40,220 nt of DNA from a virus. Taxonomy: Duplodnaviria; Heunggongvirae; Uroviricota; Caudoviricetes. Position numbers and translations under genes: made by a program. Positions 1 to 13,161 of the stretch are shown here, in pieces. Location: IMG/VR virus record IMGVR_UViG_2671181134_000016; one strand, written 5' to 3'. The number at the start of each line of letters is the position of its first letter. Position 1 is the first letter of the stretch. The notes under the pieces are model-generated. The model ran no database searches, was not told the origin of the DNA, and saw only the letters and a program-made list of their open reading frames with translations.

Positions 1-567
1 ATGATCGAAAAAATTCTTGCAACTCCTGAGTTAACTGCTTTACTTCGTGATGAAGTCGAAGAAAATAATGTGTTTGTCAAATTGGATGCTGATTTTTATC
101 AGGATAACGGAAAACTAGATTGCCAAAAAATAATCAATCTTTCTGTGGATTCATATTATAATTCGCTTCGGTTGCCTATTACACCTCCTTCACCAGATAA
201 TATTTTAGTTATTAAGCGAGGGGATAATCGTTTTGCACTTTACATAATTGAGTTGAAGAATGTTGCAAAAGTTTCCCGATTAGATGAAGAAAATATACGA
301 TGCAAGTATAAGACAGCAGTAGACGATTTCATGCAAGAGCGTTTTTCTGATAGTTTTTTAAAAGAAGATGTGAAAATTACTGATTTTAATATATGGATTG
401 TATGTAATAGATTCTCTTTTTTAGGGAAAGAACTTACTGATGAACAGTATGCAAAAAAAGTAATTAATAATGGGGTTATGGAAAAGTTACTACTATCCAA
501 ACCTTATAGGTTTAGAGGTAAAATATCTCCTATAACTTTCCAGTTAAGTGGCTCTGAAGTGTGTTAA
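1..567 (+). CDS. Hypothetical cargo protein between prophage end and int; possible PD-(D/E)xK nuclease-like motif (PDNILVI ... IIELK). May be N-terminally truncated by the window edge.
   Basis: 188-codon ORF, AT-rich relative to phage core genes; D...ELK spacing reminiscent of restriction-endonuclease-like fold; no family recognised. Confidence 0.5.
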   Translation: MIEKILATPELTALLRDEVEENNVFVKLDADFYQDNGKLDCQKIINLSVDSYYNSLRLPITPPSPDNILVIKRGDNRFALYIIELKNVAKVSRLDEENIRCKYKTAVDDFMQERFSDSFLKEDVKITDFNIWIVCNRFSFLGKELTDEQYAKKVINNGVMEKLLLSKPYRFRGKISPITFQLSGSEVC

Positions 568-570
568 AAA

Positions 571-597
571 GTGAGGGGGAGTTTTCCCCCTCATTTT
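571..597. terminator. Bidirectional rho-independent terminator between the convergent cargo ORF and int
   Basis: Perfect hairpin GAGGGGGA-gttt-TCCCCCTC flanked by an A-run upstream and T-run downstream; overlaps the int stop codon. Confidence 0.6.
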
Positions 598-1721
598 AAT
601 TCTAACTTATTCCAATCTTTTCCCCTGTCATCATGGTAACGATCGGTTTGCTGCTGGGTTTTATGGCCCAGCAGTTTTCTGGTATCTATCCCTTGCTCCT
701 TGTAAAGGCGTTCAGATAAAGATCTTTGTTCATGAAAAGTTGCTGGAGTTCCAGTACCCCAATCAATTTTTGCCAGATCACGCGCCTTGCTAAAGTTCAT
801 CGTTAGTGTATTAGCTTTTACCTGTGCGCCACGTTCAGCCTGTGAGGTTGTGCGAAAAAAATGTACAAGATATGGACTGACAGCATAGTCACGGCAGCGG
901 GCTACTACATCTCGCAAACTCCAGTTAATCGCATTGAGACGCAGGGAAAGCGGGATGGCGATTTTGCTCCCAGTTTTTTCCTGGATGACATGGAGATGAT
1001 CATCCCAAATATCGCTAAATTTCATACGCGAGATATCACCTAACCTCTGACCGGTAACCAGTGCTGACAGCATGGCATTCCCCATATAACGATGACTGGC
1101 ATCTGCGATATCAAAGATTTTTTGCCATTCTTCAAGGCTTAACCGTTGTCGGGTAATTTTTCTTCTGGGCTGTTTGGTCGCTAATGCTGGATTATAGCCA
1201 GGAGGGACCTCCCCATAGTGTTGTGCCTCCTTGAATACATCAATTAGAACGGAGCGGACTACTTGCGCCATCCTCGGTTGCCCAGCAGTGATATACTCGT
1301 CAAGCAATTGTGCTATATCCCTTACATCAACGGATGAAATTAACTTCATTCCTGCTCGTTCCCTGAGCAAGGATACTGGTTTGGCTTTCTGTTTATAGGT
1401 GTTGAGCTTTATATCGCCACTTTTCAGTCTGTCATCCTGGATTGCTTGATAGCGATCTAACCAGGTTGACGTTGTGATTGCTTTTCCTTTGCTGGTTGCG
1501 ATCCTGTCACTGATAGCCAGAATCTGCCGGGTTCTTTGCTCAGCCAGGCGTGTATTGGCCTCAGTGGCAATAGCAATGGCTTCAGCTTCGTTTGTGCCCA
1601 AAGAATGAAACTTCCCGGTCACTGGATGCTTATATCGCCAATAGACTTTATTTACTTTTCTGCTATAGAGCGGATATAAGTTCGGGACTGAAACATTATT
1701 TTTACGTGGTCTGGCTGCCAT
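591..1721 (-). CDS. int: Lambda-family tyrosine integrase
   Basis: 376 aa; alignable by eye to lambda Int (WLDRYQ..., C-terminal LGHK...RYHDDRGKDWNKLELK versus lambda LGHKSDTMASQYRDDRGREWDKIEIK); ATG at 1721. Confidence 0.95.
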   Translation of the reverse strand: MAARPRKNNVSVPNLYPLYSRKVNKVYWRYKHPVTGKFHSLGTNEAEAIAIATEANTRLAEQRTRQILAISDRIATSKGKAITTSTWLDRYQAIQDDRLKSGDIKLNTYKQKAKPVSLLRERAGMKLISSVDVRDIAQLLDEYITAGQPRMAQVVRSVLIDVFKEAQHYGEVPPGYNPALATKQPRRKITRQRLSLEEWQKIFDIADASHRYMGNAMLSALVTGQRLGDISRMKFSDIWDDHLHVIQEKTGSKIAIPLSLRLNAINWSLRDVVARCRDYAVSPYLVHFFRTTSQAERGAQVKANTLTMNFSKARDLAKIDWGTGTPATFHEQRSLSERLYKEQGIDTRKLLGHKTQQQTDRYHDDRGKDWNKLELK

Positions 1722-1947
1722 TACTTAAAATCCTTTGTAGAATAATAGAATCACTTTTCTTGATGACAGGAGTAACTAATTCCCCAACTAACTCTGCGTC
1801 CTCACGCACTCGCCATAGTCGACCTTGTTTCATTGCCGGTGGACAAAATAAATTCTGCTTAGCATAACGACGCAATGTGGACACACTTGGAGGATTACTT
1901 CTGTATTTTTCCGTAGCCCATTCCTCAAGTGTCAGCATTTGAAGCAT
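1702..1947 (-). CDS. xis: Excisionase (Xis); start probably ATG at 1947 or 1938 rather than the track start at 1962
   Basis: MLTLEEW...PPSVSTLRRYAKQNLFCPPAMKQGRLW resembles lambda Xis (MYLTLQEW...VRRWVRECRIFPPPVKDGREY); overlaps the int start as in lambda; GAGG upstream of the 1947 ATG. Confidence 0.8.
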   Translation of the reverse strand: MLQMLTLEEWATEKYRSNPPSVSTLRRYAKQNLFCPPAMKQGRLWRVREDAELVGELVTPVIKKSDSIILQRILSNGSQTT

Positions 1948-1990
1948 TTTTGATAACCTCATTTCTTTTGCTACAAAACTATTTCACTAG

Positions 1991-2539
1991 TTAATTTCGC
2001 TGTCTGGATTGTTTATGTATCTTATGCAGCTCTTTAAAGCGTTCCATAAACATTCCGTAGGCATGGCCCGGTGCCAGTGGAATCACGTTGAACATCTCTG
2101 TTGCCGGGATGCCTTCCAGTACAGGCCAGAAAGAGCCATCATCAAGCCCGAGATCGCGGCGTTCGGTTGCCAGCATGATGAGATCGGCATATTTCACGGG
2201 CGTACTCATAACCGGGGGTAACCCGTATTTCTCACGGATTACGGCGTCTATTTTTTCTTCCATCTGTTTATAGTCAGGAAGAAGGCGTTTCAGTGGAGCG
2301 GGGATGTCCTGGCAATACGCTTCTGTTGCATCATGCATTAACGCTTCAAAAGCAAATTCCTGCGGTACCAGTTGGCTGCAAAGAACCGCATGTTGGGCGA
2401 CGCTGTAGAAGTGTGAAAGATGTCCTGCAAAACGACAGATATTTGAAAGGGAAACCGCGATATCGTTAATAACGATGTCGTCTTTATTTATCCTGTCATA
2501 ATAAAAATGCTTCCCAGAAAAAGTTTTAATAAATAACAT
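1991..2539 (-). CDS. HD-domain phosphohydrolase / 5'-deoxynucleotidase (YfdR-like)
   Basis: HD motif (ALMHDATEAY); about 182 aa from the internal ATG at 2539, similar in size to E. coli YfdR as I recall it. Confidence 0.75.
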   Translation of the reverse strand: MLFIKTFSGKHFYYDRINKDDIVINDIAVSLSNICRFAGHLSHFYSVAQHAVLCSQLVPQEFAFEALMHDATEAYCQDIPAPLKRLLPDYKQMEEKIDAVIREKYGLPPVMSTPVKYADLIMLATERRDLGLDDGSFWPVLEGIPATEMFNVIPLAPGHAYGMFMERFKELHKIHKQSRQRN

Positions 2540-2667
2540 TTTGTTCTCTACGTTATTTGCGCTGCACCGCACTGAATTCTGGTAAAAGGAAGCCCTCACC
2601 ATCCGGCGATTATTGAGTAAATTACGTTTCCATAAATGCCCCCACAGGGGCATTTGCAGTAATGAAA

Positions 2668-3492
2668 TCAGGCGTTGAAAGTACCAATAAAGGTTTTTAC
2701 TTTGCTGTCTTTGAATTTTTCAACAAGCAGATCACGAAATTCGTTAGCCATTTCTTCCTGCACTGCTTCCAGCTGAATAATGCGCAGAACCAGTACAGGG
2801 CGATCACCAGTGATAATGCTGAGTCGTAATTTAAACGGACGTTCTTTCAGGCCTTCAAACGGAACGCATTTAAATTCAAATGCCACTGGCATAATGTCTT
2901 TGGTCTTCGCTTCGACAGACTCCATCAGGGAGCGTTTGCCGCTGAAGTCATTGTCTTCAAAATCAGCAGTCTGGTTCGCTTCAATTGTGATTTTACGGAT
3001 CGCTGCAGCCGCTTTGGTTGCCTGAATGGCGTCACCATTAGCATCAAAGCCCACAAGGTAGTCGGCCCAGTCTTCAATCCATTCTGCCAGTGATTTCTGG
3101 GAGTTACGCTCGCCGTTAACAGACAACAGGGCAGAGAACGGTGCTGTCTTTTTCAGTTTGAGAGTGGCGGTGTTATCTGCGTGACCTGGTTCATCAATAG
3201 TACCCAGGTTAAGCACACTGACGGCACGCATATTATCAGCATCGATAAAGCAGCGGGTGCCTTCATCTGCAAGATCTTTAGAATAACGGGTAAAGTCATC
3301 GATGCTGGCAGTGGAAAGCGCACCACGGAAACGGAAGCGATTTAAATTAAATTTTTCCAGATCATGAATGCGGAAATTCTCAGGCAATGCCACAGCATCG
3401 GCACCAATCTTACTGATAATTTCATTAACACCCTGAGCAGAAATAAGGGCATGGATTTGATTAATTGCGGTTGCGTCTAAGTTCTGAGACAT
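2668..3492 (-). CDS. YfdQ-like protein (DUF2303-type prophage protein)
   Basis: 274 aa; GAGGA Shine-Dalgarno before the ATG at 3492; length and position match remembered yfdQ of CPS-53-type prophages. Confidence 0.65.
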
Positions 3493-3557
3493 AATAAGTC
3501 CTCACTATATTAAGATATTCAGTGATGAGATAAATAATCAGTTAATTAAGAACGATA

Positions 3558-3920
3558 TTAATGACCTGCTGCGCGGAGTTTTCCGTCAGGCTCACCGGCA
3601 AGAGTCAGTAATTGTCCCTGGTCTTCCTGCAGAATAGTCAGGCGACCACCGCGATTGACATACATCGGCGTTTCGGTGGTGTCTTCTTCGGAAATTTTCC
3701 CACGGTTAGTCGGGCGAACATATGAGAGTTTGTGTTTGATTTTCACACGGTTCTCATCAAATGGTTCGATTTCCAGGTTGAGTGAGACCTTACCTTTGGT
3801 TTTCGTGTTCATCACACCGGAAGCGACTTCACTGAGAACTGCGCCGATTTTGGTTTCAAATACGCCGCCGTCCAGCTCCCCGATAAATGCCTGCACATCA
3901 GTACTGCGTTCGCTAGCCAT
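3558..3920 (-). CDS. YfdP-like hypothetical protein (first gene of leftward early operon)
   Basis: Internal ATG at 3920 preceded by GAGGAG; about 120 aa; the long track ORF upstream extension has no RBS. Confidence 0.6.
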   Translation of the reverse strand: MASERSTDVQAFIGELDGGVFETKIGAVLSEVASGVMNTKTKGKVSLNLEIEPFDENRVKIKHKLSYVRPTNRGKISEEDTTETPMYVNRGGRLTILQEDQGQLLTLAGEPDGKLRAAGH

Positions 3921-4528
3921 TTTGCTGCTCCTCATCATATCGACCCTGCAAGGTCGGTTGGTTTCTCCACAAAACAGAGAAGAACACCTGCGGTGACTGC
4001 CGCCCGGATGGATTGGGTTATGAGCCCGTCGTCCGATGATGCTCTTCTCTGTTTTGTAAAAAGAGCGGTACCAGCCGGAAGCAAGGGTACAAACTGGTAC
4101 CGCCAAAGCAGTGGCTGTTGTGGTGGGGTTGTCACTCAGGCGTATGGTCAACCTGACAATCCGGTGTCCTCAACGGGGAAAGAGTAACCCCGCCATACTT
4201 ACCGCCGCGCCATTTCGCGGATTACCACAACGCTGAGAGCACTTAGCCAGTTACGGCACCACACTTTGTCGCGGCTCCATAAATGCCCTCATCGTTGCAC
4301 CCTGGTCTCTTCCCAGGCGTCAAACCGAATCGCCACGCTGGTTAGGCGTCTTATCAGCATCATCATTGACTTGCACATTCCGGCTACCTGGTTTGTTTGC
4401 CCGAGCAAGGAGTGGATTGTCCCCTTTAACGTCCCCAGACCGCTAACGACGCATGTGCCATACGCCGTGTTACAACCAAATTTTGTTAGTACCTTGTTTG
4501 TTTGTCTGGAAAGAAAGATAAAATGAAG

Positions 4529-4567
4529 TTGCGCATCATGCAAGTATTTTTGTTGCGAGATATGCAA
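4529..4567 (-). promoter_or_regulatory. OL-like operator pair (TTGCGCATCATGCAA and TTGCGAGATATGCAA) overlapping a leftward promoter (-35 TTGCAT, -10 TATCTT on the minus strand)
   Basis: Two TTGC-N7-GCAA dyads 24 bp apart, same dyad type as in the cI-cro intergenic region. Confidence 0.5.
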
Positions 4568-4581
4568 TTTAAAGGGTAATG

Positions 4582-4606
4582 AAAAGCCACCTTTGGGTGG
4601 CTAATT
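4582..4606 (-). terminator. Terminator downstream of cI
   Basis: GCCACC-tttg-GGTGGC hairpin followed by a T-run on the minus strand, 17 bp after the cI stop. Confidence 0.55.
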
Positions 4607-4622
4607 GATGAGGAGGTAAGGG

Positions 4623-5315
4623 TTAATTGTGTCGCTTAAGGGTTTGTGACTGGCTGATTAAGACCTTTCCAAAGACCATAAACCGGTGTTCATTTTCGCT
4701 GGTAATTCCCCATTCACGGTAAATCTGGTTATCAGAAATCACCAGTAGTTTGTCAGGTATCATTTGCAGTCGTTTGACATAAATTTTATCATCAAAACCA
4801 AATACATAGATACCATCTCCATCAAACTGATTGATACTGACATCAACGAAGATGAGATCTCCTGGCTCAATGGTTGGACACATACTGTCCCCACGAACGT
4901 TGATAACTTTAATGTGATTGGCTGGCCGTCCGCCAAACATCGATACAGCATTATCAGTTCTGTATTCAATGGCATGAATCACATCAATGACATCACCGCC
5001 CTGGATAAGGCCATTTCCCGCACTGGCACTGACATCCAGCATTTCAATACGGAATACATCCTTCACCTGCGCAACATCCTCACTAATACTGTTTTTACAT
5101 ACAGTATTACTTTTGAAGTCTGAGGTAAAGAGATCAGCAATATCAACACCTAAGCTCTTGGCAATATTACTCAGGGCTTGTTCAGTGAATTGTTTCTGCT
5201 TACCTGTTTCCAGGCGTGAGATATTCGCCGCATCCACTCCTATTGCTTCAGCGAGATCGGCGATTTTCATGTTCTTCGCCTGGCGAAGTTGTCTGACTCG
5301 GTTTCCTATGTTCAT
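4623..5315 (-). CDS. cI: CI-type prophage repressor (N-terminal HTH, C-terminal S24 LexA-like peptidase)
   Basis: XRE-type HTH (KIADLAEAIGVDAANISRLETGK) and S24 motif (VRGDSMCPTIEPGDLIFVD ... KRL); divergent from the cro-like gene. Confidence 0.9.
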   Translation of the reverse strand: MNIGNRVRQLRQAKNMKIADLAEAIGVDAANISRLETGKQKQFTEQALSNIAKSLGVDIADLFTSDFKSNTVCKNSISEDVAQVKDVFRIEMLDVSASAGNGLIQGGDVIDVIHAIEYRTDNAVSMFGGRPANHIKVINVRGDSMCPTIEPGDLIFVDVSINQFDGDGIYVFGFDDKIYVKRLQMIPDKLLVISDNQIYREWGITSENEHRFMVFGKVLISQSQTLKRHN

Positions 5316-5335
5316 GCGTTTATTACATTTCTTTA

Positions 5336-5400
5336 TTGCGCGTTAAGCAAATCAACTTGCGCAAAATATTTGCGTGAAATAATATGCTCATCACGCAATA
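5336..5400. promoter_or_regulatory. OR-like operator / divergent promoter region between cI and cro
   Basis: TTGCGCGTTAAGCAA (TTGC-N7-GCAA dyad), near-palindrome CGCAAAATATTTGCG, further ACGCAA half-site; 97 bp AT-rich intergenic between divergent genes. Confidence 0.65.
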
Positions 5401-5412
5401 TGTGGAGGTCAT

Positions 5413-5673
5413 ATGCAATCACCATTACGGAATGTGCGTAAGGCGCACGGATTTACTTTGCAGCATGTTGCTGCTGGCGTTCAGGTCAATCCAGCGACGC
5501 TGAGTCGTATTGAAAGACTGGAACAAATTCCATCTATCGATCTTGCAGAACGTCTGGCCAATTTTTTTAAGGGTGAAATCAGCGAAATGCAGATTCTTTA
5601 TCCGGCACGTTTTCAATCTAGCCAAAACCAGAATGGGTTTAAACCACAGGAACAGGAGGTAAGCCGTGGGTAA
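5413..5673 (+). CDS. cro: Cro-like HTH regulator
   Basis: HTH (FTLQHVAAGVQVNPATLSRIER); GGAGG before the ATG; first gene of the rightward operon. Confidence 0.75.
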   Translation: MQSPLRNVRKAHGFTLQHVAAGVQVNPATLSRIERLEQIPSIDLAERLANFFKGEISEMQILYPARFQSSQNQNGFKPQEQEVSRG

Positions 5674-6223
5674 TCATCACTGGAAAGTGGAAAAACAGCC
5701 TGAGTGGTACGTGAAAGCTGTCAGAAAAACTATCGCGGCGTTGCCGGGGGGTTACGCTGAAGCTGCTGAGTGGCTGGATGTAACAGAGAACGCATTATTT
5801 AACCGCCTTCGTGCCGATGGCGATCAGATTTTCCCGCTGGGATGGGCAATGATTTTACAACGTGCTGGTGGCACTCACTTCATTGCTGACGCTGTGGCGC
5901 AGTCTGCAAATGGCGTCTTTGTGTCTCTTCCTGACGTCGAGGATGTGGACAATGCCGATATTAACCAGCGTTTACTGGAAGTCATTGAACAGATCGGCAG
6001 TTATTCAAAACAGATTCGTTCGGCAATCGAAGACGGTGTAGTGGAACCGCATGAGAAGACAGCAATTAACGACGAGCTGTACCTCTCAATTTCGAAGCTG
6101 CAGGAGCATGCAGCACTTGTCTACAAAATTTTTTGCGTTTCAGAAAGTAATGACGCCCGCGAGTGTGCAGCTCCGGGCGTCGTGGCGTCGATTGCTTCTG
6201 GTTGTGGAGAAACTAACGCATGA
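5666..6223 (+). CDS. YmfL-like / CII-position regulatory protein
   Basis: 185 aa, GTG start with AGGAGG Shine-Dalgarno; position after cro; size matches remembered e14 YmfL. Confidence 0.55.
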
Positions 6224-6558
6224 ACAGTTTAACAACACACTACCGTCGCTCGCAACTGATTGCGCTTCCTGTACCGGGTGGAAAAGCGAAGGTGGAGTAT
6301 TGCTATGCAGTAAATGTACCAGGTGACAGGGAAATTGTAACCCACAGCTTTGCTGAGTGGGCTGTGGGTGATTTCAACCGGCAGAAGGAGACAGTCCTTT
6401 GCGACAAGTTAACCGCTGGTTCAAAGATCACTACGGAGTGCCCGTCAGAGTCATTCGTTGGGAGCCGGAAACACAACGGGTTATCTACATCCGTGAAGGC
6501 TATGAGCATGAGTGCTTCAGCCCGCTCGAACAGTTTCGTCGTAAATTCAGGGAAATAG
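6220..6558 (+). CDS. YmfM-like hypothetical protein
   Basis: 112 aa; ATGA overlap with the preceding stop (translational coupling). Confidence 0.5.
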
Positions 6559-6567
6559 AGGTCGGTC

Positions 6568-7509
6568 ATGAGCACTAAATTAACCGGCTATGTATGGGAT
6601 GGTTGCGCTGCGTCAGGCATGAAATTATCCAGCGTGGCAATTATGGCCCGCCTGGCTGATTTCAGTAATGACGAAGGTGTGTGCTGGCCATCAATTGAAA
6701 CTATTGCCCGTCAGATTGGCGCGGGGATGAGTACCGTCAGAACGGCTATCGCACGGCTGGAAGTAGAAGGCTGGTTAACGCGTAAGGCGCGTCGCCAGGG
6801 TAACCGCAATGCGTCGAATGTTTATCAGCTTAACGTTGCGAAGCTTCAGGCAGCGGCATTTTCTCAACTGTCAGATTCTGACCCGTCAAAATCTGACGCA
6901 TCAAAATCTGACCCGTCAAAATTTGATGCGTCGAAATCTGGCAAAAAAGCGGGTTTTCACCCGTCAGAATCTGGCGGGGATCCGTCAGTAAAATCAAAAC
7001 ATGATCCGTCAGATAAAAAACCTTCTCGTCCGGACGCTTCGCAACCGGACACGCAGACGGCTGAACAGGATTTTTTAACTCGCCATCCTGATGCGGTTGT
7101 ATTCAGCCCTAAAAAGCGCCAGTGGGGGACGCAGGATGATTTGACCTGCGCACAGTGGCTCTGGAAAAAAATCATCGCCCTGTACGAGCAGGCTGCCGAA
7201 TGTGACGGCGAGGTGGTTCGTCCCAAAGAACCGAACTGGACAGCCTGGGCAAACGAAATTCGCCTGATGTGTGTGCAGGATGGTCGTACTCACAAACAAA
7301 TCTGCGAGATGTACAGCCGCGTCAGCCGCGATCCGTTCTGGTGCCGTAACGTGCTCAGCCCGTCGAAGCTGCGGGAAAAATGGGATGAGCTTTCCCTGCG
7401 CTTATCGCCGTCCGTCAGCACGTACACCGAAAAACGCGAAGACCCGTACTTCAAAGCCAGTTACGACAACGTGGACTACAGCCAGATCCCGGCAGGATTC
7501 AGGGGGTGA
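6568..7509 (+). CDS. Replication initiation protein (O-like, N-terminal winged-helix domain) with an internal iteron-encoded acidic/serine repeat linker
   Basis: N-terminal HTH-like replication-protein segment; internal SDSDPSKSDASKSDPSKFDASKS repeats encoded by DNA iterons; AGAGG before the ATG. Confidence 0.75.
   Translation: MSTKLTGYVWDGCAASGMKLSSVAIMARLADFSNDEGVCWPSIETIARQIGAGMSTVRTAIARLEVEGWLTRKARRQGNRNASNVYQLNVAKLQAAAFSQLSDSDPSKSDASKSDPSKFDASKSGKKAGFHPSESGGDPSVKSKHDPSDKKPSRPDASQPDTQTAEQDFLTRHPDAVVFSPKKRQWGTQDDLTCAQWLWKKIIALYEQAAECDGEVVRPKEPNWTAWANEIRLMCVQDGRTHKQICEMYSRVSRDPFWCRNVLSPSKLREKWDELSLRLSPSVSTYTEKREDPYFKASYDNVDYSQIPAGFRG
6871..7015. repeat. Iteron array (putative origin of replication) inside the replication initiator gene, followed by an A-rich stretch
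   Basis: At least 6 direct repeats of the form CCGTCA(A/G)AATCTG / GCATCAAAATCTG, then aaaatcaaaacatgatccgtcagataaaaaa. Confidence 0.6.
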
Positions 7510-7511
7510 TC

Positions 7512-8000
7512 ATGAGTCTATTAAATGACGTTCAGAAATTCATTGAAGCCCATCCGGGGTGTACTTCCGGAGACATTGCAGATGCTTTTGCTGGTTACTC
7601 ACGGCAGCGCGTTCTGCAGTCAGCAAGCAAGTTACGTCAGAGTGGGCGTGTGGCTCACCGTTGTGAAGGGGATACACGCAGACATTTCCCGCGCCTGACT
7701 GAGAGAGCGCAGGAGCCGGAACCACAACCAGTTCGTGAAACCAGACCTGTGCGCAATTTCTATGTCGGCACTAACGATCCCCAGGTGATTTTGTGCCTGA
7801 CCCGCCAGGCGGAAGAACTGGAGTCCAGGGGCTTATTTCGTCGTGCTGCAACCGTGTGGATGGCGGCATTCCGTGAAAGCCACTCCCAGCCAGAACGAAA
7901 CAATTTTCTGGCGCGTCGTGAGCGGTGCTTACGGAAAAGCAGCAAGCGCGCTGCATCGGGTGAAGAGTGGTATCTGTCAGGGAATTACGTGGGGGCTTAA
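7512..8000 (+). CDS. Hypothetical DNA-binding protein, PerC-like C-terminal motif (AEELESRGLFRRAATVWMAAF)
   Basis: ATG at 7512 preceded by GGGGG; stop overlaps next start (TAATG). Confidence 0.5.
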   Translation: MSLLNDVQKFIEAHPGCTSGDIADAFAGYSRQRVLQSASKLRQSGRVAHRCEGDTRRHFPRLTERAQEPEPQPVRETRPVRNFYVGTNDPQVILCLTRQAEELESRGLFRRAATVWMAAFRESHSQPERNNFLARRERCLRKSSKRAASGEEWYLSGNYVGA

Positions 8001-8653
8001 TGAGTAATAAATATTGCCAGGCGCTGGTGGAGCTGCGGAACAAACCAGCCCATGAACTGAAGGAAGTGGGCGATCAGTGGCGCACGCCGGACAACATTTT
8101 CTGGGGAATTAACACCCTGTTTGGCCCGTTTGTTCTGGATCTGTTTACTGATGGTGATAACGCCAAATGTGCCGCTTATTACACTGCGGAAGACAACGCG
8201 CTGGCGCATGACTGGTCAGAACGTCTTGCGGAGCTTAAAGGTGCTGCCTTTGGTAATCCCCCATACAGCCGCGCCAGTCAGCATGAGGGGCAATACATCA
8301 CCGGCATGCGTTACATCATGAAGCATGCCAGTGCCATGCGTGATAAAGGCGGGCGCTATGTTTTCCTGATCAAAGCTGCCACCAGCGAAGTGTGGTGGCC
8401 GGAAGATGCAGATCATATTGCTTTTATTCGCGGGCGTATTGGTTTTGAACTGCCTGCCTGGTTTATCCCGAAAGATGAGAAGCAGGTGCCGACAGGCGCT
8501 TTCTTCGCTGGTGCTATTGCTGTTTTCGACAAGACCTGGAAGGGACCGGCAATCAGCTACATCGGGCGCGATGAACTTGAGGCATGTGGTGAGGCGTTTC
8601 TGGCGCAGGTTCGCCAGCAGGCGGAAAAACTGGTCAGGGAGATGGCGGCATGA
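8000..8653 (+). CDS. Phage DNA N6-adenine methyltransferase (Dam-type, orphan)
   Basis: NPPY catalytic motif (GNPPYSRAS); ATG at 8000 coupled to upstream stop. Confidence 0.85.
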   Translation: MSNKYCQALVELRNKPAHELKEVGDQWRTPDNIFWGINTLFGPFVLDLFTDGDNAKCAAYYTAEDNALAHDWSERLAELKGAAFGNPPYSRASQHEGQYITGMRYIMKHASAMRDKGGRYVFLIKAATSEVWWPEDADHIAFIRGRIGFELPAWFIPKDEKQVPTGAFFAGAIAVFDKTWKGPAISYIGRDELEACGEAFLAQVRQQAEKLVREMAA

Positions 8654-8976
8654 CGACGTTAACTCAATGCCAGCAGCAGGTGCTGGATATGCTGATTTCT
8701 TATCAGAAAGAACGTGGCTTCCCGCCAACCGATCAGGAGGTGGCAACCATGCTGGGATACCGTTCAGTGAATGCAGCGGTGGAGCATCTTCGCGCACTGG
8801 AGAAAAAAGGCGTCATCACGATAAAGCGTGGTGTGGCCCGGGGGATCACGCTTCATACCGTGGTGAAGGACGACGACAGCGAGGCGGTCGGGATTATCCG
8901 CTCACTGCTTGCCGGTGAGGAAAACGCCAGGCTGCGTGCAGCCCATTGGTTACATGAGAGAGGCCTGAAAGTATGA
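8650..8976 (+). CDS. Small DNA-binding protein resembling the LexA N-terminal winged-helix domain
   Basis: MTTLTQCQQQVLDMLISYQKERGFPPTDQEVATMLGY... resembles the LexA DNA-binding domain; no peptidase domain. Confidence 0.55.
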   Translation: MTTLTQCQQQVLDMLISYQKERGFPPTDQEVATMLGYRSVNAAVEHLRALEKKGVITIKRGVARGITLHTVVKDDDSEAVGIIRSLLAGEENARLRAAHWLHERGLKV

Positions 8977-9362
8977 AGCTGATCCTGCCTTTTCCGCCCA
9001 GCGTGAACACGTACTGGCGACACCCCAACAAAGGGGCGTTTGCTGGTAAGAGCCTGATAAGCGCGGCGGGGCGAAAATTCCAGAGCGCGGCGTGTGCAGC
9101 AATAGTTGAGCAGTTACGTCGTCTGCCGAAACCAACGTCGGCACCTGCTTCAGTGGAGATCGTGTTGTTTCCACCGGATAACCGGATCCGCGATCTGGAC
9201 AACTATAACAAGGCGCTGTTTGACGCCCTGACCCACGCGGGTGTGTGGGAAGACGACAGTCAGGTGAAAAGAATGCTGGTGGAGTGGGGACCGGTTATCC
9301 CGGAAGGGAAGGTCGAGATCACTATCATTAAGTACGAGAAAACGGCGGGTGCAGCCGCCTGA
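8973..9362 (+). CDS. rusA: RusA Holliday-junction resolvase
   Basis: PPSVNTYW ... RDLDNYNKALFDALTHAGVWEDDSQV, characteristic of the RusA family. Confidence 0.9.
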   Translation: MKLILPFPPSVNTYWRHPNKGAFAGKSLISAAGRKFQSAACAAIVEQLRRLPKPTSAPASVEIVLFPPDNRIRDLDNYNKALFDALTHAGVWEDDSQVKRMLVEWGPVIPEGKVEITIIKYEKTAGAAA

Positions 9363-9381
9363 TTAAGAGGAGAAACGAAGT

Positions 9382-10179
9382 ATGAATAATCTGATGGTCA
9401 TTGATGGTATTGAAGTTCGTCGTGATGCTTATGGGCGTTACAGCCTGAACGATCTGCACAGGGCTGCCGGTTCTCTGGATAAGCATAAGCCTGCATTCTG
9501 GCTCCGCAATGAGCAAACTGAACGTTTAATAAGCGAGTTGCAGATTTGCAACTCGGTCAATATAGAGCCAGTTAACGTTATTCGTGGCGGAAATAACCAG
9601 GGGACGTATGTCTGCAAAGAACTGGTGTATGCCTATGCAATGTGGATCAGCCCGTCATTCCATCTGAAGGTGATCCGTACTTTCGATATGGTAACCAGCG
9701 CACCGGAAAAATTATCCGGGCAGGCTGCTGACAAGATGCAGGCTGGTGTGATTCTGCTGGACTTTATGCGCAGGGAGTTAAACCTGTCTAACTCTTCAGT
9801 GCTTGGTGCCTGTCAGAAACTCCAGGAGGCTGTTGGCTTACCGAATCTGGCACCGCGCTATGCCATTGATGCTCCTGCTGACGCGCCTGATGGCTCAAGC
9901 CGCCCCACGCTGTCACTGAGTGCACTGCTGAAGCAGTATGGTATCCGCCTGACAGCTAATCAGGCATATCACCAGATGGTGAAGCTGGGGATCGTCGAGC
10001 AGCGCGAACGATACAGCCGTACCGCGATTAACAACATCAAAAAATTCTGGTCGCTGACGGCGAAAGGCTGCATGTTCGGCAAGAACATCACCAGTCCTGC
10101 AAATCCGCGCGAGACGCAGCCGCATTTCTTCGAATCCCGATTCCCTGAGCTGTTAAAGCTGCTTGATACCGTTCATTGA
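9382..10179 (+). CDS. KilA-N domain protein
   Basis: N-terminal KilA-N-like segment (VIDGIEVRRDAYGRYSLNDLHRAAG...); AGAGGAG Shine-Dalgarno. Confidence 0.75.
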   Translation: MNNLMVIDGIEVRRDAYGRYSLNDLHRAAGSLDKHKPAFWLRNEQTERLISELQICNSVNIEPVNVIRGGNNQGTYVCKELVYAYAMWISPSFHLKVIRTFDMVTSAPEKLSGQAADKMQAGVILLDFMRRELNLSNSSVLGACQKLQEAVGLPNLAPRYAIDAPADAPDGSSRPTLSLSALLKQYGIRLTANQAYHQMVKLGIVEQRERYSRTAINNIKKFWSLTAKGCMFGKNITSPANPRETQPHFFESRFPELLKLLDTVH

Positions 10180-10186
10180 GGTGACT

Positions 10187-11176
10187 GTGAGAGCACTACT
10201 GACCCCTGAAATTGCCCCGCGTATGGGGATCGTATTGTTCAGACCAGGTTCAGAGCTGATGCCCCTGTTTATGCAGGGGCGTGTCCTGCTGGAGCCTGAG
10301 CCGGAACGTTATTCATCTTTCGCCAGTGGTGCCGTTCCGGCGGCATCACAACCGCTGGCGGATGATCCTGCCGTTCGGGCCGTGTTCCGCAATGAGGCAG
10401 TGATCCGTCGTGCTGGTGGCGTGGAATGTCTTGAAAGCTGGTTACTTCGTGAAAAAGGCTGCCAGTGGCTTCATTCCGACTGGCACAGCGAGAACATGAC
10501 CACAATGCGGCACGCTCCGGGAGCAATTCGTCTGTGCTGGCACTGCGATAACCAGCTGCGCGATCAGTTCACGGAACGGCTGGAATCAATGGCAACGGAT
10601 AACTGTGCCCGCTGGGTGTTATCTGTTGTGCGCCGTGATCTCGGTTTTGATGATAGTCACGTTGTGACAATTCCGGAACTGTGCTGGTGGCTGATTCGTA
10701 ATGACCTGGCGGATGCCTTACCGGAAAGTGCAGCCCGTAAGGCACTGAGATTACCGAAGCCTGTTGTGCCGTCTGTCACCCGGGAAAGTGACCTTGTGCC
10801 TTCGGTTCCTGCCACCAGCATCATCCAGGATAAGGCGAAAAAGGTGCTGGCGCTGAAAGTGGATCCGGAGTCGCCGGAGTCTTTTATGTTACGCCCAAAA
10901 CGTCGCCGCTGGGTTAATGAAAAGTACACGCGCTGGGTTAAGACGCAGCCGTGTGCATGTTGTGGAAAGCCTGCTGATGATCCCCACCACCTGATAGGCC
11001 ACGGTCAGGGTGGAATGGGTACAAAAGCGCATGATCTCTTTGTGTTGCCTTTGTGCAGAAAGCATCACGACGAACTGCATGCGGATACCGTGGCATTTGA
11101 AGAGAAGTATGGCTCCCAGCTGGAGCTGATATTTCGTTTTATCGATCGTGCGCTGGCAATTGGCGTGCTGGCCTGA
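10187..11176 (+). CDS. DUF968-type protein (YdfU-like; Cys/His-rich C-terminus CACCGKPADDPHHLIGHGQGG...CRKHHDELH)
   Basis: C-terminal HNH-like Cys/His cluster; probable GTG start at 10187 with GAGG upstream (track start is TTG). Confidence 0.65.
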   Translation: MRALLTPEIAPRMGIVLFRPGSELMPLFMQGRVLLEPEPERYSSFASGAVPAASQPLADDPAVRAVFRNEAVIRRAGGVECLESWLLREKGCQWLHSDWHSENMTTMRHAPGAIRLCWHCDNQLRDQFTERLESMATDNCARWVLSVVRRDLGFDDSHVVTIPELCWWLIRNDLADALPESAARKALRLPKPVVPSVTRESDLVPSVPATSIIQDKAKKVLALKVDPESPESFMLRPKRRRWVNEKYTRWVKTQPCACCGKPADDPHHLIGHGQGGMGTKAHDLFVLPLCRKHHDELHADTVAFEEKYGSQLELIFRFIDRALAIGVLA

Positions 11177-11193
11177 TTTTGTGGAGAAGGTTG

Positions 11194-11544
11194 ATGCGTG
11201 ATATGTATGAAGTATTGGACCGCTGGGGAGCATGGGCTGCAGCAGATAACAGTGGTGTGGACTGGCAGCCTGTTGCTGCAGGGTTTAAAGGTTTACTACC
11301 TCATGGAAAGAAAACACGCCAACAATGCGATGATGATGAAGGAATCATGATTGACAGCTGTGTTGCGCGATTGCGGAAATATAAGCCAGAAGAATATGAA
11401 CTGATCATTGCTCACTTTGTTATCGGTATTTCACTCCGTTCAATAGCAAAGAAACGGAAATGCTCTGACGGGTCAATCAGAAAACAACTTCAAGCAGCAA
11501 TAGGAGTGATTGAAGGTATTTTGTTGATTATTAAGCCCCTGTAG
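11194..11544 (+). CDS. Q: Late-gene antiterminator Q (phage 82 / QuuD type)
   Basis: MRDMYEVLDRWGAWAA...FKGLLP... closely resembles remembered E. coli QuuD (MRDIQQVLERWGAWAA...); GGAGAAGG Shine-Dalgarno. Confidence 0.85.
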   Translation: MRDMYEVLDRWGAWAAADNSGVDWQPVAAGFKGLLPHGKKTRQQCDDDEGIMIDSCVARLRKYKPEEYELIIAHFVIGISLRSIAKKRKCSDGSIRKQLQAAIGVIEGILLIIKPL

Positions 11545-11550
11545 GGCTTA
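11532..11550. terminator. Hairpin at the convergent junction of Q and the reverse cassette (putative bidirectional terminator)
   Basis: TAAGCCC-ctgta-GGGCTTA, overlapping both stop codons; no clean T-run. Confidence 0.4.
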
Positions 11551-12132
11551 ATAATTCATATGAATTCTGTTTCCGAGATAATATAATCCAAAGAAAGTTG
11601 ATACTAAGAGTTGCCAAACGAGGAAAGTAAATACAACAGTATAAACCATTAAAACAATACTGTTTTGATAGACATTGATTAATGGTGAAAATATAGCATT
11701 AAGTATTATTATAACAATGCTTAATGCTGTTAAAAAAGAGAATAGCATGCAAAGAAATAAGCGTCTGGTCAGAACCTCCTCTGAATTTACTACTTTTCCA
11801 TTTTCTTTTGTTACTTTTATTTCAATAGAGGCATTTCTTTCATTGCTAATCAATGGTAAATCAATCTCAGCTCTATTGAAAGTTGCTATGGCGGCCAGAG
11901 CGGCAATATAAAACCCTGGTAGGTTAGAGATAAATGAAACGATTGATTTAATGAAACCATTGTCATCAAATAAATCTTTGACAGGGATTTTTAATAGAAT
12001 GAAAAGTACTGCTGTGATAGAAGTAAGTAGAATTGGTGCTACCCAATCATATGCAGCTTTGCCGCTAATACCTTTAATAAAAAGATATCCAAACGGCTTG
12101 CCTAGATGAGAGAAAACTGAAAGTATTGGCAT
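11548..12132 (-). CDS. Cassette gene C: 4-TM integral membrane protein of unknown family
   Basis: 194 aa with four hydrophobic spans; GAGG before ATG at 12132; AT-rich; last gene of a three-gene operon. Confidence 0.7.
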   Translation of the reverse strand: MPILSVFSHLGKPFGYLFIKGISGKAAYDWVAPILLTSITAVLFILLKIPVKDLFDDNGFIKSIVSFISNLPGFYIAALAAIATFNRAEIDLPLISNERNASIEIKVTKENGKVVNSEEVLTRRLFLCMLFSFLTALSIVIIILNAIFSPLINVYQNSIVLMVYTVVFTFLVWQLLVSTFFGLYYLGNRIHMNY

Positions 12133-12139
12133 AATAACC

Positions 12140-12559
12140 TCACATCAAATCTATCATTTTCACAACAAACTCTAGTTCAATTTTAACATATGAATCCTTC
12201 AGGCGCGAATTAAAGTTATCGATAATGCTTTTCTTAATAAATGTTTTTTCTAAATTATTAAGATTGATGTTTGAGGTTTTGAAATCAACCTGCCTTGGTT
12301 TATTTGTTTCAGGATCTTGGAATTTAACCTTTAATTTATCATAACCACCATTCATTTTTTTATTGAAATGAGATGCTACATTTTTAATCCATCCAATAAC
12401 ATTGTCACCATGATTTGGAAGTAATTTTAATGTACTTTCAGTCGGAATGTAAGGTGAATTAACATCAGGAGCATTAATTGTTCCGAATTGATCCTTGACT
12501 AATATGACATCTGATAATCCTTTTTGGCTTATTTTATTAAAAAGCTCCTTGTCTAACAT
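12140..12559 (-). CDS. Cassette gene B: soluble protein of unknown family
   Basis: 139 aa; ATG overlaps stop of gene A (ATGTTAG), indicating translational coupling. Confidence 0.65.
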   Translation of the reverse strand: MLDKELFNKISQKGLSDVILVKDQFGTINAPDVNSPYIPTESTLKLLPNHGDNVIGWIKNVASHFNKKMNGGYDKLKVKFQDPETNKPRQVDFKTSNINLNNLEKTFIKKSIIDNFNSRLKDSYVKIELEFVVKMIDLM

Positions 12560-13161
12560 TCCTGTAAATTCAAATATTGGTTTGTATCGTATTTTACTTC
12601 TTTTTTTGATGTTGCAGAAATAACGTTAGTTGGATGTTTTGCGGTAAATAAGTCTTCATTGTCTTTCGCCACTTCAAAGAGAATTTTGTCTAAAAAACTA
12701 TTTAACCGGGCCGTAGATACACCTGGGGTAGATGTACAAATCATATCATAGGTTCTTTTATTTCCATTTAATGATATGACAACATAGGTAGAAACTTCAT
12801 AGCCTTCACCTTGTTCATATTTTGGTTGGATTTCAACGCGTTCATTAGTATTTGTATTTTTTACAACGGTAGTACTTCCATTTTTATCAACACTATTAAT
12901 AAGAAGGACAATATGCGTGGGTGAGTTATCTGGAAGTAAAGGATAAAGTTGTACATCTTGGAGAGTAACTACAATATTCCCAGAATCATATGAATGAACG
13001 AGTCCCTTTTGTTTAACAATCAATGGGGCAAGCATGTACATTTCCGGAACAGGACATATACACTGGGCTTTTACCTCTTGTGTTGCCTTGGTTCTAAACT
13101 TTGTGTCAATGGTCAGACTATGATGAGTAACGAGTCTTTCGCTAGCATTTAATTTTGCCAT
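12553..13161 (-). CDS. Cassette gene A: soluble beta-rich protein of unknown family
   Basis: 202 aa; ATG at 13161; AT-rich; first gene of the reverse-oriented operon inserted between Q and the late operon. Confidence 0.65.
   Translation of the reverse strand: MAKLNASERLVTHHSLTIDTKFRTKATQEVKAQCICPVPEMYMLAPLIVKQKGLVHSYDSGNIVVTLQDVQLYPLLPDNSPTHIVLLINSVDKNGSTTVVKNTNTNERVEIQPKYEQGEGYEVSTYVVISLNGNKRTYDMICTSTPGVSTARLNSFLDKILFEVAKDNEDLFTAKHPTNVISATSKKEVKYDTNQYLNLQEC

Follow-up and report, generated by a model that had tools for sequence, protein, structure and literature searches.

A modular RNA leader with a new structured-RNA family probably heads the early-left transcript of a lambdoid prophage

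The gap between yfdP and the repressor gene

The window, by which we mean the whole 40,220-nt stretch of DNA analysed here (virus record IMGVR_UViG_2671181134_000016, Caudoviricetes), contains 702 nt without annotation between the start of yfdP (3920) and the stop codon of a cI-like XRE repressor gene (4623), and the PGAP annotation of a 100% identical RefSeq record calls no gene there. The original prediction had described a gene-free leader between the leftward promoter and the first gene of the left operon, and this leader turned out to be slightly larger than stated. Its description as GC-rich holds as well, with a GC content of 0.52-0.565 over positions 3800-4500 against 0.39-0.45 in the flanks. 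ARAGORN and Rfam found no tRNA or tmRNA cloverleaf in the whole window. The first gene behind the gap, yfdP, belongs to PHROG 204, is of unknown function and is not arginine-rich; its ATG at 3920-3918 is preceded by the Shine-Dalgarno sequence GAGGAG at 3933-3928. The features that we distinguish in the gap are collected in Table 1.

Table 1. Features assigned between the repressor gene and yfdP, in the order of leftward transcription
Feature	Positions	Strand	Sequence and basis
Repressor-gene intrinsic terminator	4585..4602	-	AGCCACCCAAAGGTGGCT then T-run; terminator scan; 21 nt past the stop codon at 4623
PL promoter and two OL operators	4515..4567	-	read from sequence
A/C-rich 5' segment of the PL transcript (UCCAGACAAACAAACAAGG...)	4468..4508	-	little predicted structure; sequence
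Element C, 172-nt conserved structured RNA	4296..4467	-	model R1 and covariation
Hairpin S	4228..4297	-	minimum-free-energy fold; motif scan of fetched loci
Cassette B, ~115 nt	4117..4231	-	closing stem GUUGUGGU/ACCACAAC; conserved
DicF-like sRNA 3' module / intrinsic terminator	4058..4107	-	UUUGGCGGUACCAG-19 nt loop-CUGGUACCGC then UCUUUUU
Module A, long hairpin	3969..4057	-	stem ~18-23 bp, ACAAAACAGAGAAGAGCA ... UGUUCUUCUCUGUUUUGU
Small hairpin GACCUUGCAGGGUC and yfdP Shine-Dalgarno	3921..3968	-	sequence; PGAP gene model of the identical record

The PL promoter is placed after the repressor terminator, as it is in other lambdoid loci. As read from the sequence, its -35 box is TTGCAT (4543-4538) and its -10 box TATCTT (4520-4515), with a spacer of 17 nt, and the two OL operators, TTGCATATCTCGCAA (4567-4553) and TTGCATGATGCGCAA (4543-4529), follow the pattern TTGCAT-N5-GCAA. 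TTGC-N7-GCAA repeats of the OL type recur in the PR/PRM region at 5333-5400. Transcription from PL would start at about 4508.

Regarding antitermination, the window has the predicted late antiterminator Q (11179-11544, PF06530 match), and the predicted lack of an N-like antiterminator agrees with our analysis in that none of the early ORFs tested gave an N-like protein; as N proteins are poorly conserved, failure to detect N is no proof of its absence. Also a lambda-type N/nut organisation was not found in the window, where yfdP is the first gene after PL, and the first genes downstream of element C in the relatives include no match to the N family. In the PR operon, a terminator scan gave no convincing intrinsic terminator.

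Element C, a structured-RNA family

The window contains one copy of element C, to which model R1 assigns a score of 141 bits (E 6.5e-43); the next best R1 match in the whole window, searched with filters off, reaches 7.7 bits. Its fold comprises five covarying helices and a pseudoknot. P1 is formed by CGGCGUAU/AUGCGUCG, P2 by UCUGG/CCAGG with a variable, three-way apical part, P3 is a variable hairpin, P4 pairs ACGC with GCGU around the 7-nt loop CUAACCA, and P5 reads CCUGG-GAAGAGA-CCAGG. The pseudoknot connects AACC of the P4 loop with GGUU. About 50 nucleotides, mainly in loops and junctions, are invariant, and we regard these together with the pseudoknot as the hallmark of a specific activity or a specific molecular partner.

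Comparison of the relatives for compensatory base changes supports this fold. For element C, 96% of the cells are paired and 13 pairs show compensatory changes, a covariation score that none of 500 shuffles reached, and slid controls stayed at or below 47%. In the pseudoknot, a C-G pair is replaced by A-U in 5 of 60 distinct sequences, namely four of the window type and one from Kosakonia (L241), whose close relative L261 retains C-G. G.U combinations occur 200 times at the paired positions and A.C combinations 5 times, from which it follows that the minus strand is the sense strand of the element. The folding energy of the single sequence is unremarkable (z-score -0.59). A search of the whole window against Rfam 15 yielded zero matches at the gathering threshold, and at E-values up to 10 positions 3400-5000 gave chance-level matches only. 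A calibrated covariance model and about 130 distinct sequences have been assembled for the family, which forms 42 clusters below 95% identity and extends down to 55% identity. Element C is a new, independently mobile structured-RNA family, and it is not protein-coding.

A query consisting of C and the adjoining hairpin S matched in 1834 of 5426 complete E. coli genomes, which is about a third, and an annotation was never present among the matches listed. Confident matches in species-representative genomes numbered 23, made up of 22 Enterobacterales species and one MAG labelled Bacillota, in which the match lies on a 1.7-kb contig. Element C is also found behind the repressor-controlled promoters of other lambdoid phages, where it lies about 150 nt past the repressor stop codon in at least five immunity types and is followed by genes of at least four unrelated PHROG families. 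The spacer upstream of it differs in length between loci, from 7-8 nt up to about 50 or about 120 nt. In Uetakevirus it stands beside tRNA-Arg, and in P1 between tRNA-Ile and ban, where there is no terminator; altogether a same-strand tRNA adjoins the motif in about 45 of about 125 loci. Hairpin S comes next after C in the lambdoid phages and in Uetakevirus, across which the module order is conserved; in P1 the next feature is the ban ribosome-binding site. For 11 of the 42 representative loci, the 800 nt behind C yielded no intrinsic terminator. One tandem second copy of the element looks degenerate, and in loci of the B type no divergent copies were found except one with a single-base change. 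A literature search on RNA between trnI and ban of P1, or upstream of yfdP, found sRNA-17 alone.

Other phage RNAs resemble element C in their setting. The stable RNAs of T4 are phage-encoded, often lie beside co-oriented tRNA genes and have conserved complex folds, and their function is not known. ROOL and GOLLD share with element C that they are phage-encoded, often stand co-oriented beside tRNA genes and have a conserved complex fold without known function, but element C, at about 150-180 nt, is far shorter, its confident matches in genomes come from Enterobacterales species, and Rfam gave no match of it to the ROOL or GOLLD families. Likewise, no conserved expression platform directly downstream of C and no Rfam riboswitch match were found.

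Hairpin S, the cassette and the DicF-like terminator

In hairpin S, CAAC-GAU-GAGGGCAUUU ... AAGUGCUCUC-AGC-GUUG form a long, irregular stem below a variable tip. A motif scan of the fetched loci gave 319 matches with many compensatory stem variants, among them TGAGAGCA/TGCTCTCA, TGAGAACA/TGTTCTCA, TAAGGGTA/TACCCTTA and AAGCGCAC/GTGCGCTT. By analogy with related loci, we infer that RNase III cuts in S and so parts C from the cassette behind it.

In the window this cassette is B, with the hairpins CCGCG-AAAUGG-CGCGG, GUAUGG/CCAUAC, CGGGG/CCCCG and GACA/UGUC. The inverted repeat CCGCG-ccattt-CGCGG to which the original prediction had pointed is present at 4207-4222; it is hairpin Bb of this module and conserved in the K-12 Qin dicF precursor region. 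Window positions 4109-4231 are 89% identical (E 2.5e-43) to positions 3752-3874 of the Qin locus, directly upstream of dicF, and B is also found with 85-90% identity in phage Evi and in a phage recorded as Actinobacillus phage. The modelled fold is plausible: 93% of the cells are paired, but compensatory changes are few, as the sequences are too alike to prove it. The position of B is occupied by tRNA-Arg(UCU) in Uetakevirus and by the body of sRNA-17 in RS218-type prophages. GTTGT(G/A)(G/A) motifs recur where modules join.

The terminal hairpin precedes the T-run and has an energy of -21 to -22 kcal/mol; up to int, the left operon has no other strong intrinsic terminator. A 17-nt stretch of this module matches DicF at 16 of 17 positions, and the terminator is of the same type as the 3' end of sRNA-17, as judged from primers and alignment, and similar to the KilS terminator. 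In the window, the Rfam DicF model (RF00039) gave no match at the gathering score nor at E-values up to 10, so that the terminal module is only a distant relative of DicF; in phage Evi the model reaches 76 bits directly after B. From B and the terminator together, an RNA of about 170 nt is predicted (roughly 4231 to 4058), which would correspond to sRNA-17 and to the 190-nt DicF. By eye, a boxA-like string overlaps the terminator tail. It was also considered that the string CACAACA mimics a GcvB target, as in an anti-sRNA like AgvB, but AgvB and AsxR in Rfam gave no match, and CACAACA belongs to the stem that closes B, as its 3' arm. The Pas sRNAs, likewise considered and rejected, are located elsewhere, in the late prophage region.

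Between the terminator and yfdP, module A folds with -45.8 kcal/mol and is conserved in Salmonella phage 118970_sal3, where it shows one compensatory change from G-C to A-U and lies upstream of a yfdP homologue. Lying ahead of yfdP, module A is a candidate for RNase III cleavage or for translational control. The yfdP type locus, CPS-53 of K-12, was rejected as a model, since it is without the leader and shares only 40 nt with the window, namely the last 20 nt of the leader plus the yfdP start.

By its sequence homology to the ydfC-dicF spacer of Qin, this segment of the window is assigned to a DicF-type precursor locus. In Qin, the 190-nt “long DicF” is RNase III-dependent and its 5' end is made by RNase III (PMC10448788). 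The Qin dicF terminator is leaky, and terminated as well as read-through transcripts exist (PMC10448788). When placed by length, the 5' end of the 190-nt DicF falls on the 3' strand of S. Like the window, Qin dicBF is an early-left operon under a cI-like repressor (DicA), and in both loci S and B are followed by an sRNA whose hairpin doubles as intrinsic terminator (leaky in Qin). The two differ in that no more than about 17 nt of DicF recur in the terminal sRNA of the window, and in that the window is without an AU-rich RNase E site of the kind that yields the 53-nt DicF of Qin. Instead of C, Qin has the translated ORFs ydfABC and a different upstream module, and the downstream gene is dicB in Qin, whereas it is yfdP in the window.

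A second relative, sRNA-17 of E. coli K1 RS218, is a 193-nt RNA mapped by RACE and northern blot (Sun et al. 2020, PMC7719688), which we compared with the window by means of the primers of that paper and RS218-type viral contigs. The published primers show the 5' RACE end at CGUUGUGG; they put the 5' end at CGTTGTGG and the 3' end at a terminator of the window type. The primer sequences of the boundaries, CGUUGUGG ... CUGGUACCGCUCUUUU, are present in the window at 4232-4224 and 4104-4060, and sRNA-17 spans the region from the S-cassette junction to the terminator. An RS218-type locus (L013) is collinear with the window, and PL, C, S, the terminator, the long hairpin and yfdP are near-identical, whereas between the GUUGUGG and CCACAAC arms the window carries module B and RS218 a body of unrelated sequence, B'. 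This sRNA-17 body (GAATGCGCAGGCTGATGCGCGAAAGACA...) occurs in 12 fetched loci and is absent from the window. The authors' qRT-PCR amplicon starts inside C, at its 5' edge. Deletion of the sRNA region in RS218 raised yfdP 95-fold (PMC7719688), a rise that could stem from the promoter of the inserted resistance cassette. That study took C and S for promoter DNA, and the relation to DicF and the RNA family C were not recognised there.

A third relative is the KilS sRNA in the 5' UTR of kilR in the Rac prophage of K-12, which is Hfq-associated and northern-verified (PMC8175672). It shares with the window the 3' strand of an S-type hairpin and a terminator hairpin of the GGCGG.A.CAG type, and it lies upstream of the first toxic gene of the early-left operon. 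In contrast to the window, no cassette is present between S and the terminator, C is absent, and BLAST of the window leader against the KilS locus gave no match. Processing of the S-cassette junction by RNase P, in connection with the M3 RNA of phi80, an RNase P substrate, was also considered. This was rejected because M3 is a homologue of oop, none of C, S and B occurs in phi80, which has N and nutL, and formation of the homologous 5' end in Qin depends on RNase III.

Working of the leader and alternative readings

We think, with a probability of about 70%, that the gap is on its minus strand a modular non-coding leader, built from exchangeable RNA modules, at the head of the PL (early-left) transcript. 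Within this analysis, the reading is based on sequence homology, covariation, strand and module order. The RNA species themselves, the need for RNase III and the joint transcription of C and the sRNA are known from relatives alone, and the transcription start, cleavage position, attenuation and terminator efficiency are our deductions for this prophage.

In such a leader, RNA polymerase would start at about 4508 once the repressor leaves the two operators, and would transcribe element C, hairpin S, cassette B and the DicF-like terminator hairpin in this order. By homology with the Qin dicBF operon and the sRNA-17 locus of RS218, RNase III would cut in the long stem of S, giving on the 5' side an RNA of about 280 nt with element C and on the 3' side one of about 170 nt with B and the terminator hairpin, which would end at 4058-4107. 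The same terminator would attenuate transcription into yfdP-yfdQ-yfdR-xis-int, and these genes would be supplied by leaky read-through as at the Qin dicF terminator. The long hairpin before the yfdP ribosome-binding site is likely a second processing or translational-control point.

Concerning element C itself, our best guess, held tentatively, is that it acts as a stable early RNA which is freed by processing and binds a conserved host or phage factor. More speculative still is the idea that C represents a new functional class of phage RNA, either catalytic, ligand- or protein-binding, or reprogramming RNA polymerase in a manner unrelated to put, which temperate phages of enterobacteria from three unrelated groups (lambdoid, P1-like and Uetakevirus) deploy at the start of early transcripts.

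The main alternative for C, possible but in our view rather doubtful, is a put-like cis action, in which the nascent RNA would bind the transcribing RNA polymerase as a processive antiterminator, so that transcription from PL continues beyond the leader terminator and whatever Rho-dependent sites there are, and N is replaced. The original prediction had offered a put-like element, an sRNA or simply untranslated sequence; the structured RNA or sRNA it proposed is supported by the covariation of C, the homology to the DicF precursor and the sRNA-17 locus, whereas membership in the put family found no support. In HK022, put is a sequence of about 70 nt with two stem-loops that follows both PL and PR and acts alone on the zinc-binding domain of RNA polymerase beta-prime (PMC9378689). 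Element C resembles it as a structured RNA near PL of a lambdoid phage (HK022 is without N, and in the window and these lambdoid phages none was found) that is conserved independently of the downstream genes. It is also the first structured element behind repressor-controlled early promoters, beginning about 40 nt from the presumed PL start, 7-8 nt from the -10 box in some relatives, and, in Uetakevirus, about 50 nt from a promoter of the form TTGACA-17-TACCTT. Between it and the protein-coding genes stands a strong terminator in the window and in Uetakevirus, and its invariant unpaired nucleotides would suit a contact surface for protein or polymerase. However, with 172 nt, five helices and a pseudoknot its architecture is different, the window has a single copy with none in the PR operon, and BLAST of the HK022 nun-PL-cI-PR region against window positions 3401-7000 found the cI gene only (69% identity), without similarity in the PL/put region. 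The copies beside tRNAs in P1 and Uetakevirus do not resemble the setting of put, and the P1 copy has no terminator to pass, nor was an intrinsic one found within 800 nt in the 11 representative loci mentioned above. Moreover, Qin passes the homologous dicF terminator without C, and RS218 lysogens have a C-containing transcript with yfdP almost silent.

The remaining readings concern the leader as a whole. The view proposed for sRNA-17 in E. coli K1, that the DNA of C and S is a promoter or regulatory region with ArcA-binding sites for a separately transcribed sRNA and not an RNA element, is improbable. The GTTA repeats are present in the window copy, but most family members have CAGCGG instead of GTTAGCGG, the sequence of S has no sigma-70-like promoter before the mapped 5' end, and the compensatory changes and the asymmetry of G.U over A.C show selection on the fold of the minus-strand RNA. 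Also the position of the authors' qRT-PCR amplicon speaks against this view, as does the homologous 5' end in Qin, which comes from RNase III and for which an internal promoter was not found. We consider it very improbable that recombination scars and decaying fragments make up the leader and that spacing is its sole function. The mosaic character is indeed clear, the modules differ in distribution, GTTGT(G/A)(G/A) motifs mark the junctions and the tandem copy of C looks degenerate; decay, however, would not keep about 50 positions of C invariant across sequences only 55% identical overall, maintain helices by compensatory change or preserve a module order shared by lambdoid phages and Uetakevirus, and experiments have revealed homologous RNAs. 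Hardly credible, finally, are small protein genes concealed in the gap, possibly for an unrecognised N-like factor. Several GenBank phage records carry plus-strand hypothetical ORFs across the region, and a sense-strand ORF of 66 aa with a GTG start exists at 3935-4135, but the latter, which is not rich in arginine, covers both the terminator and the long hairpin, and PGAP calls no gene here. The ORFs of the gap, judged unconvincing from the outset, are not kept as reading frames: spacings between the invariant blocks vary freely modulo 3 among relatives, the indels in hairpins of the conserved blocks are 2, 3 and 4 nt, and the pattern of variation fits paired stems.

With the modular leader, the recurrent “empty” 700-bp gap of very common E. 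coli, Shigella and Stx prophages is accounted for as an RNA locus. DicF, KilS and sRNA-17, which were described separately, become variants of one modular platform that consists of a promoter, a 5' module, an RNase III hairpin, an exchangeable cassette and a terminator sRNA, and the published “promoter of sRNA-17” would, as the comparison suggests, itself be a conserved structured RNA. If C acts on RNA polymerase, it would show how the early-left operon is controlled in lambdoid phages in which N has not been detected.

Layout of the early left region

In the gap between yfdP and the cI-like repressor gene, PGAP annotates no gene, and the GC-rich character ascribed to it in the original prediction was recovered (0.52-0.565 against about 0.4 in the flanks), as was the inverted repeat quoted there. 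Likewise, no N-like gene was found among the early ORFs examined, and such an N-less layout is also annotated in phage cdtI, PhiR47_1 and one Stx2a phage. A 741-nt query spanning the gap (window 3900-4640) is 100% identical to a prophage of E. coli STEC17-183. In BLAST searches against phage records, separate parts of the gap match separate relatives, and the gap is thus a mosaic. The operator repeats, of the same type as the operators between cI and cro, overlap a -35 (TTGCAT) and a -10 element (TATCTT) with a 17-nt spacer on the minus strand, and the position of these elements places the probable start of the early leftward promoter PL at about 4508.

Features of the early left region and relatives of its parts
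Feature	Position	Strand	Details
Left arm int, xis, yfdR, yfdQ, yfdP	yfdP 3558-3920	minus	
Small hairpin, then yfdP ribosome-binding site	after the 3969-4057 stem		GAGGAG
Long hairpin	3969-4057	minus	stem 18-23 bp, -45.8 kcal/mol
Terminator segment, after B	4058-4107	minus	UUUGGCGGUACCAG...CUGGUACCGCUCUUUUU
Module B	4117-4231	minus	closed by GUUGUGGU/ACCACAAC
Hairpin S	4228-4297	minus	stem CAAC-GAU-GAGGGCAUUU / AAGUGCUCUC-AGC-GUUG; minimum-free-energy fold
Element C	4296-4467	minus	covariation, model R1
Operator repeats	after repressor terminator	minus	TTGCATATCTCGCAA and TTGCATGATGCGCAA
Repressor gene's own terminator	4602-4585	minus	
Gap without annotated feature	between yfdP and repressor		702 nt
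cI-like XRE repressor	4623-5315	minus	
cro	5413	plus	
CII-like ymfL	beyond cro		
Q	11179-11544		
Part related to Salmonella phages	3957-4063		upstream of yfdP homologues; BLAST
Part related to Rac/Qin-like phages	4109-4231		BLAST
Part related to P1, P7 and epsilon15-like Uetakevirus phages	4225-4468		BLAST

The rightward operon from cro to Q (window 5300-11200, plus) has no convincing intrinsic terminator, so that the absence of an N-like factor may be relevant for the left operon only. Elsewhere in the window, three ORFs of 194, 139 and 202 aa (11548-13161, minus) lie on the opposite strand between Q and the holin gene. No Pfam match for any of them exceeds the curated cut-off, and they resemble a moron-type insertion into the late-promoter region. 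A 188-aa ORF (1-567, plus) beside the integrase end stands in DNA of 30-34% GC that differs strongly in composition from all other parts of the window, and may represent cargo or DNA of a flanking island.

Fold and distribution of element C

A 19-mer from the C region retrieved at least 120 viral contigs, which yielded 102 distinct 270-nt sequences in 42 clusters below 95% identity, with identities to the window down to 55%. Their alignment contains invariant blocks (GGCAC, AGCGGUC, GGUAGCCGGAAUGUGCAAG, CACCA, GGCGAU.CGGUGUGAC and GGAAGAGAC), separated by helices that show the compensatory changes for which a comparative alignment had been proposed. The structure, consisting of helices P1, P2, P4 and P5 and two pseudoknots, is paired in 96% of cells, with double changes in 13 pairs; the observed covariation was reached in 0 of 500 column shuffles, and pairing fell to 25-47% when partners were slid by 1-3 columns. 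One pseudoknot joins the 7-nt P4 loop to a downstream GGUG, and a C-G pair in it is replaced by A-U in 5 of 60 distinct sequences (four window-type and one from Kosakonia, L241), while L261, a close relative of the latter, keeps C-G. G.U pairs outnumber A.C pairs by 200 to 5, which assigns the fold to the minus-strand RNA, and the distances between the invariant blocks fall evenly into the three residue classes modulo 3, which rules out for C the conserved small coding gene considered as a counter-explanation.

The window scores 141 bits with the covariance model R1, which detects no further copy there; no Rfam family matches C, so the covariance-model check suggested originally gave it no name, and the window as a whole has no Rfam match. 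In another viral contig (L022), two same-strand copies lie about 800 nt apart (3995-4152 and 4802-4957, both minus), the second with a lower score (119 bits) and altered in otherwise invariant blocks (GGUC to GGCC and GGUAGCCGG to GGAAGCUGG). A wider search of species-representative genomes, by a pattern independent of the 19-mer and then R1, gave 23 confident matches. Enterobacterales species account for 22 of these, with genera including Escherichia, Citrobacter, Klebsiella, Kosakonia, Phytobacter, Kluyvera and Enterobacter, and the remaining match comes from a MAG labelled Bacillota, in a contig 1.7 kb long. Of 5426 complete E. coli genomes, 1834 have a match to a query of C plus S (window 4225-4490), and in 1472 of these the match covers 80% or more of the query; among 60 matches listed, the matched stretch carries no annotation other than a neighbouring tRNA-Arg or one hypothetical protein. 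We found no earlier description of C in Rfam 15 or the searchable literature, and by that measure it is an undescribed structured-RNA family.

In lambdoid loci, a same-strand cI-like ORF ends about 150 nt upstream of C, usually followed by its own terminator and a strong promoter, and C begins 7-8, about 50 or about 120 nt past the -10. The first genes downstream, none of them N-like, represent four or more unrelated PHROG families of unknown function. In Uetakevirus, C and S are followed by tRNA-Arg(UCU), then a DicF-like terminator, then a hairpin and another terminator, and a TTGACA-17-TACCTT promoter about 50 nt upstream of C lies inside a palindrome. This palindrome (TTACCT-N3-AGGTAA, at about -230 to -120 relative to the C 19-mer in L006, L070 and L080), with a related half-site upstream of it, looks like a repressor operator. 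In P1 and P7, C is located between tRNA-Ile and ban, within the C1-controlled ban operon. Given these varied contexts, C is a module of early transcripts under repressor control that moves independently and is tied to no particular downstream gene or expression platform. Directly after C in P7 (L001, about 2440-2500, minus) and also in P1, just ahead of the ban ribosome-binding site, stands UUUUCUGGUGAUGAC, which by eye agrees with most of the DicF 5' end UUUCUGGUGACG and points to joint movement of C with DicF-type modules.

Relation of S, B and the terminator to DicF and sRNA-17

A motif scan for S found 319 matches in the fetched loci, with many compensatory stem variants. B is well conserved, with a mean identity of 80% over 22 clusters, and its proposed helices are 93% paired, but the sequences vary too little to prove them. 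In phage Evi, an Rfam DicF match lies directly 3' of B, and in K-12 Qin the unannotated ydfC-dicF spacer holds S and B at 89% identity to the window, with DicF immediately next; together with the covarying fold of C, this homology to the Qin DicF precursor bears out the idea of a structured RNA or sRNA in the gap. In Qin, DicF occurs as a 190-nt species with an RNase III-dependent 5' end and as a shorter one of 53 nt, generated by RNase E; no internal promoter is present, and a transcript ending at dicF exists beside one that reads through (Ragunathan et al., PMC10448788). The point 190 nt upstream of the 3' end of DicF falls within the 3' strand of S, from which we infer that S is probably the RNase III site and the long species B plus DicF. 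In the Actinobacillus phage vB_Apl-pPE4 (L127; deposited host Actinobacillus pleuropneumoniae), B shares 85% identity with E. coli sequences, and positions 1-6116 carry an early-left region like that of E. coli Rac (exonuclease VIII, Kil, DicA, YdaT), which casts doubt on the assigned host or on whether the isolate was pure.

The segment after B has a 5' arm in common with DicF and is designed overall like the terminator of KilS, the Rac sRNA upstream of kilR, but it does not satisfy the Rfam DicF model. It is the sole strong intrinsic terminator in the left operon ahead of int. Its descending arm and tail (4051-4066, minus) read CGCUCUUUUUACAAAA, which by eye resembles boxA (lambda CGCUCUUA, rrn UGCUCUUUAACAA) and could be chance. 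The stem of the long hairpin is kept in one Salmonella phage with one compensatory change. The lambda N leader contains an RNase III site, and by analogy the hairpin could plausibly be a second processing or translational-control point.

Sun et al. 2020 (PMC7719688) used RACE and northern blotting to map sRNA-17, a 193-nt RNA from a prophage of E. coli K1 RS218. By the published primers it extends from CGTTGTGG to the window's own leader terminator, its qRT-PCR amplicon begins at the 5' edge of C, and the "promoter fragment" of that study is C plus S; a resistance cassette in place of the region raised yfdP 95-fold (PMC7719688). The 12 RS218-type loci among those fetched are nearly the same as the window in PL, C, S, terminator, long hairpin and yfdP and differ from it in the cassette alone, so that the site between the GUUGUGG and CCACAAC arms is an exchange site, occupied by B (window, Qin), by the RS218-type cassette B', by tRNA-Arg (Uetakevirus) or by nothing (Rac). 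One such RS218-type locus (L013) has adjoining Rfam matches to C4 antisense RNA (68 bits) and isrK (60 bits) at 2538-2726 (minus), about 2.5 kb from the leader.

Possible function of the leader

The evidence best supports a non-coding leader of the DicF type. Upon derepression of PL, the transcript would fold into C, S, B and the terminator hairpin, and RNase III would cleave S to give a 5' RNA with C and a 3' RNA of about 170 nt, while the terminator, being leaky, would attenuate but not abolish transcription into yfdP-int. As for C, what the data establish is its fold and its distribution rather than an activity. The put-like antitermination element originally envisaged, for which the promoter-proximal place of C in N-less phages would be fitting, appears unlikely, as C has no similarity to HK022 put and is present once in the window, some C loci have no detected downstream terminator, and the position between tRNA-Ile and ban in P1 weakens such a role. 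Moreover, read-through in Qin happens without C (PMC10448788), and RS218 lysogens transcribe C, yet yfdP is near-silent (PMC7719688). On these grounds we weakly favour the view that C is processed to a stable RNA with a conserved binding partner. The 3' half of the leader belongs with the known DicF, KilS and sRNA-17 loci, and uniting these loci in an architecture with an exchangeable cassette goes beyond what is stated in PMC10448788, PMC7719688 or the KilS paper.
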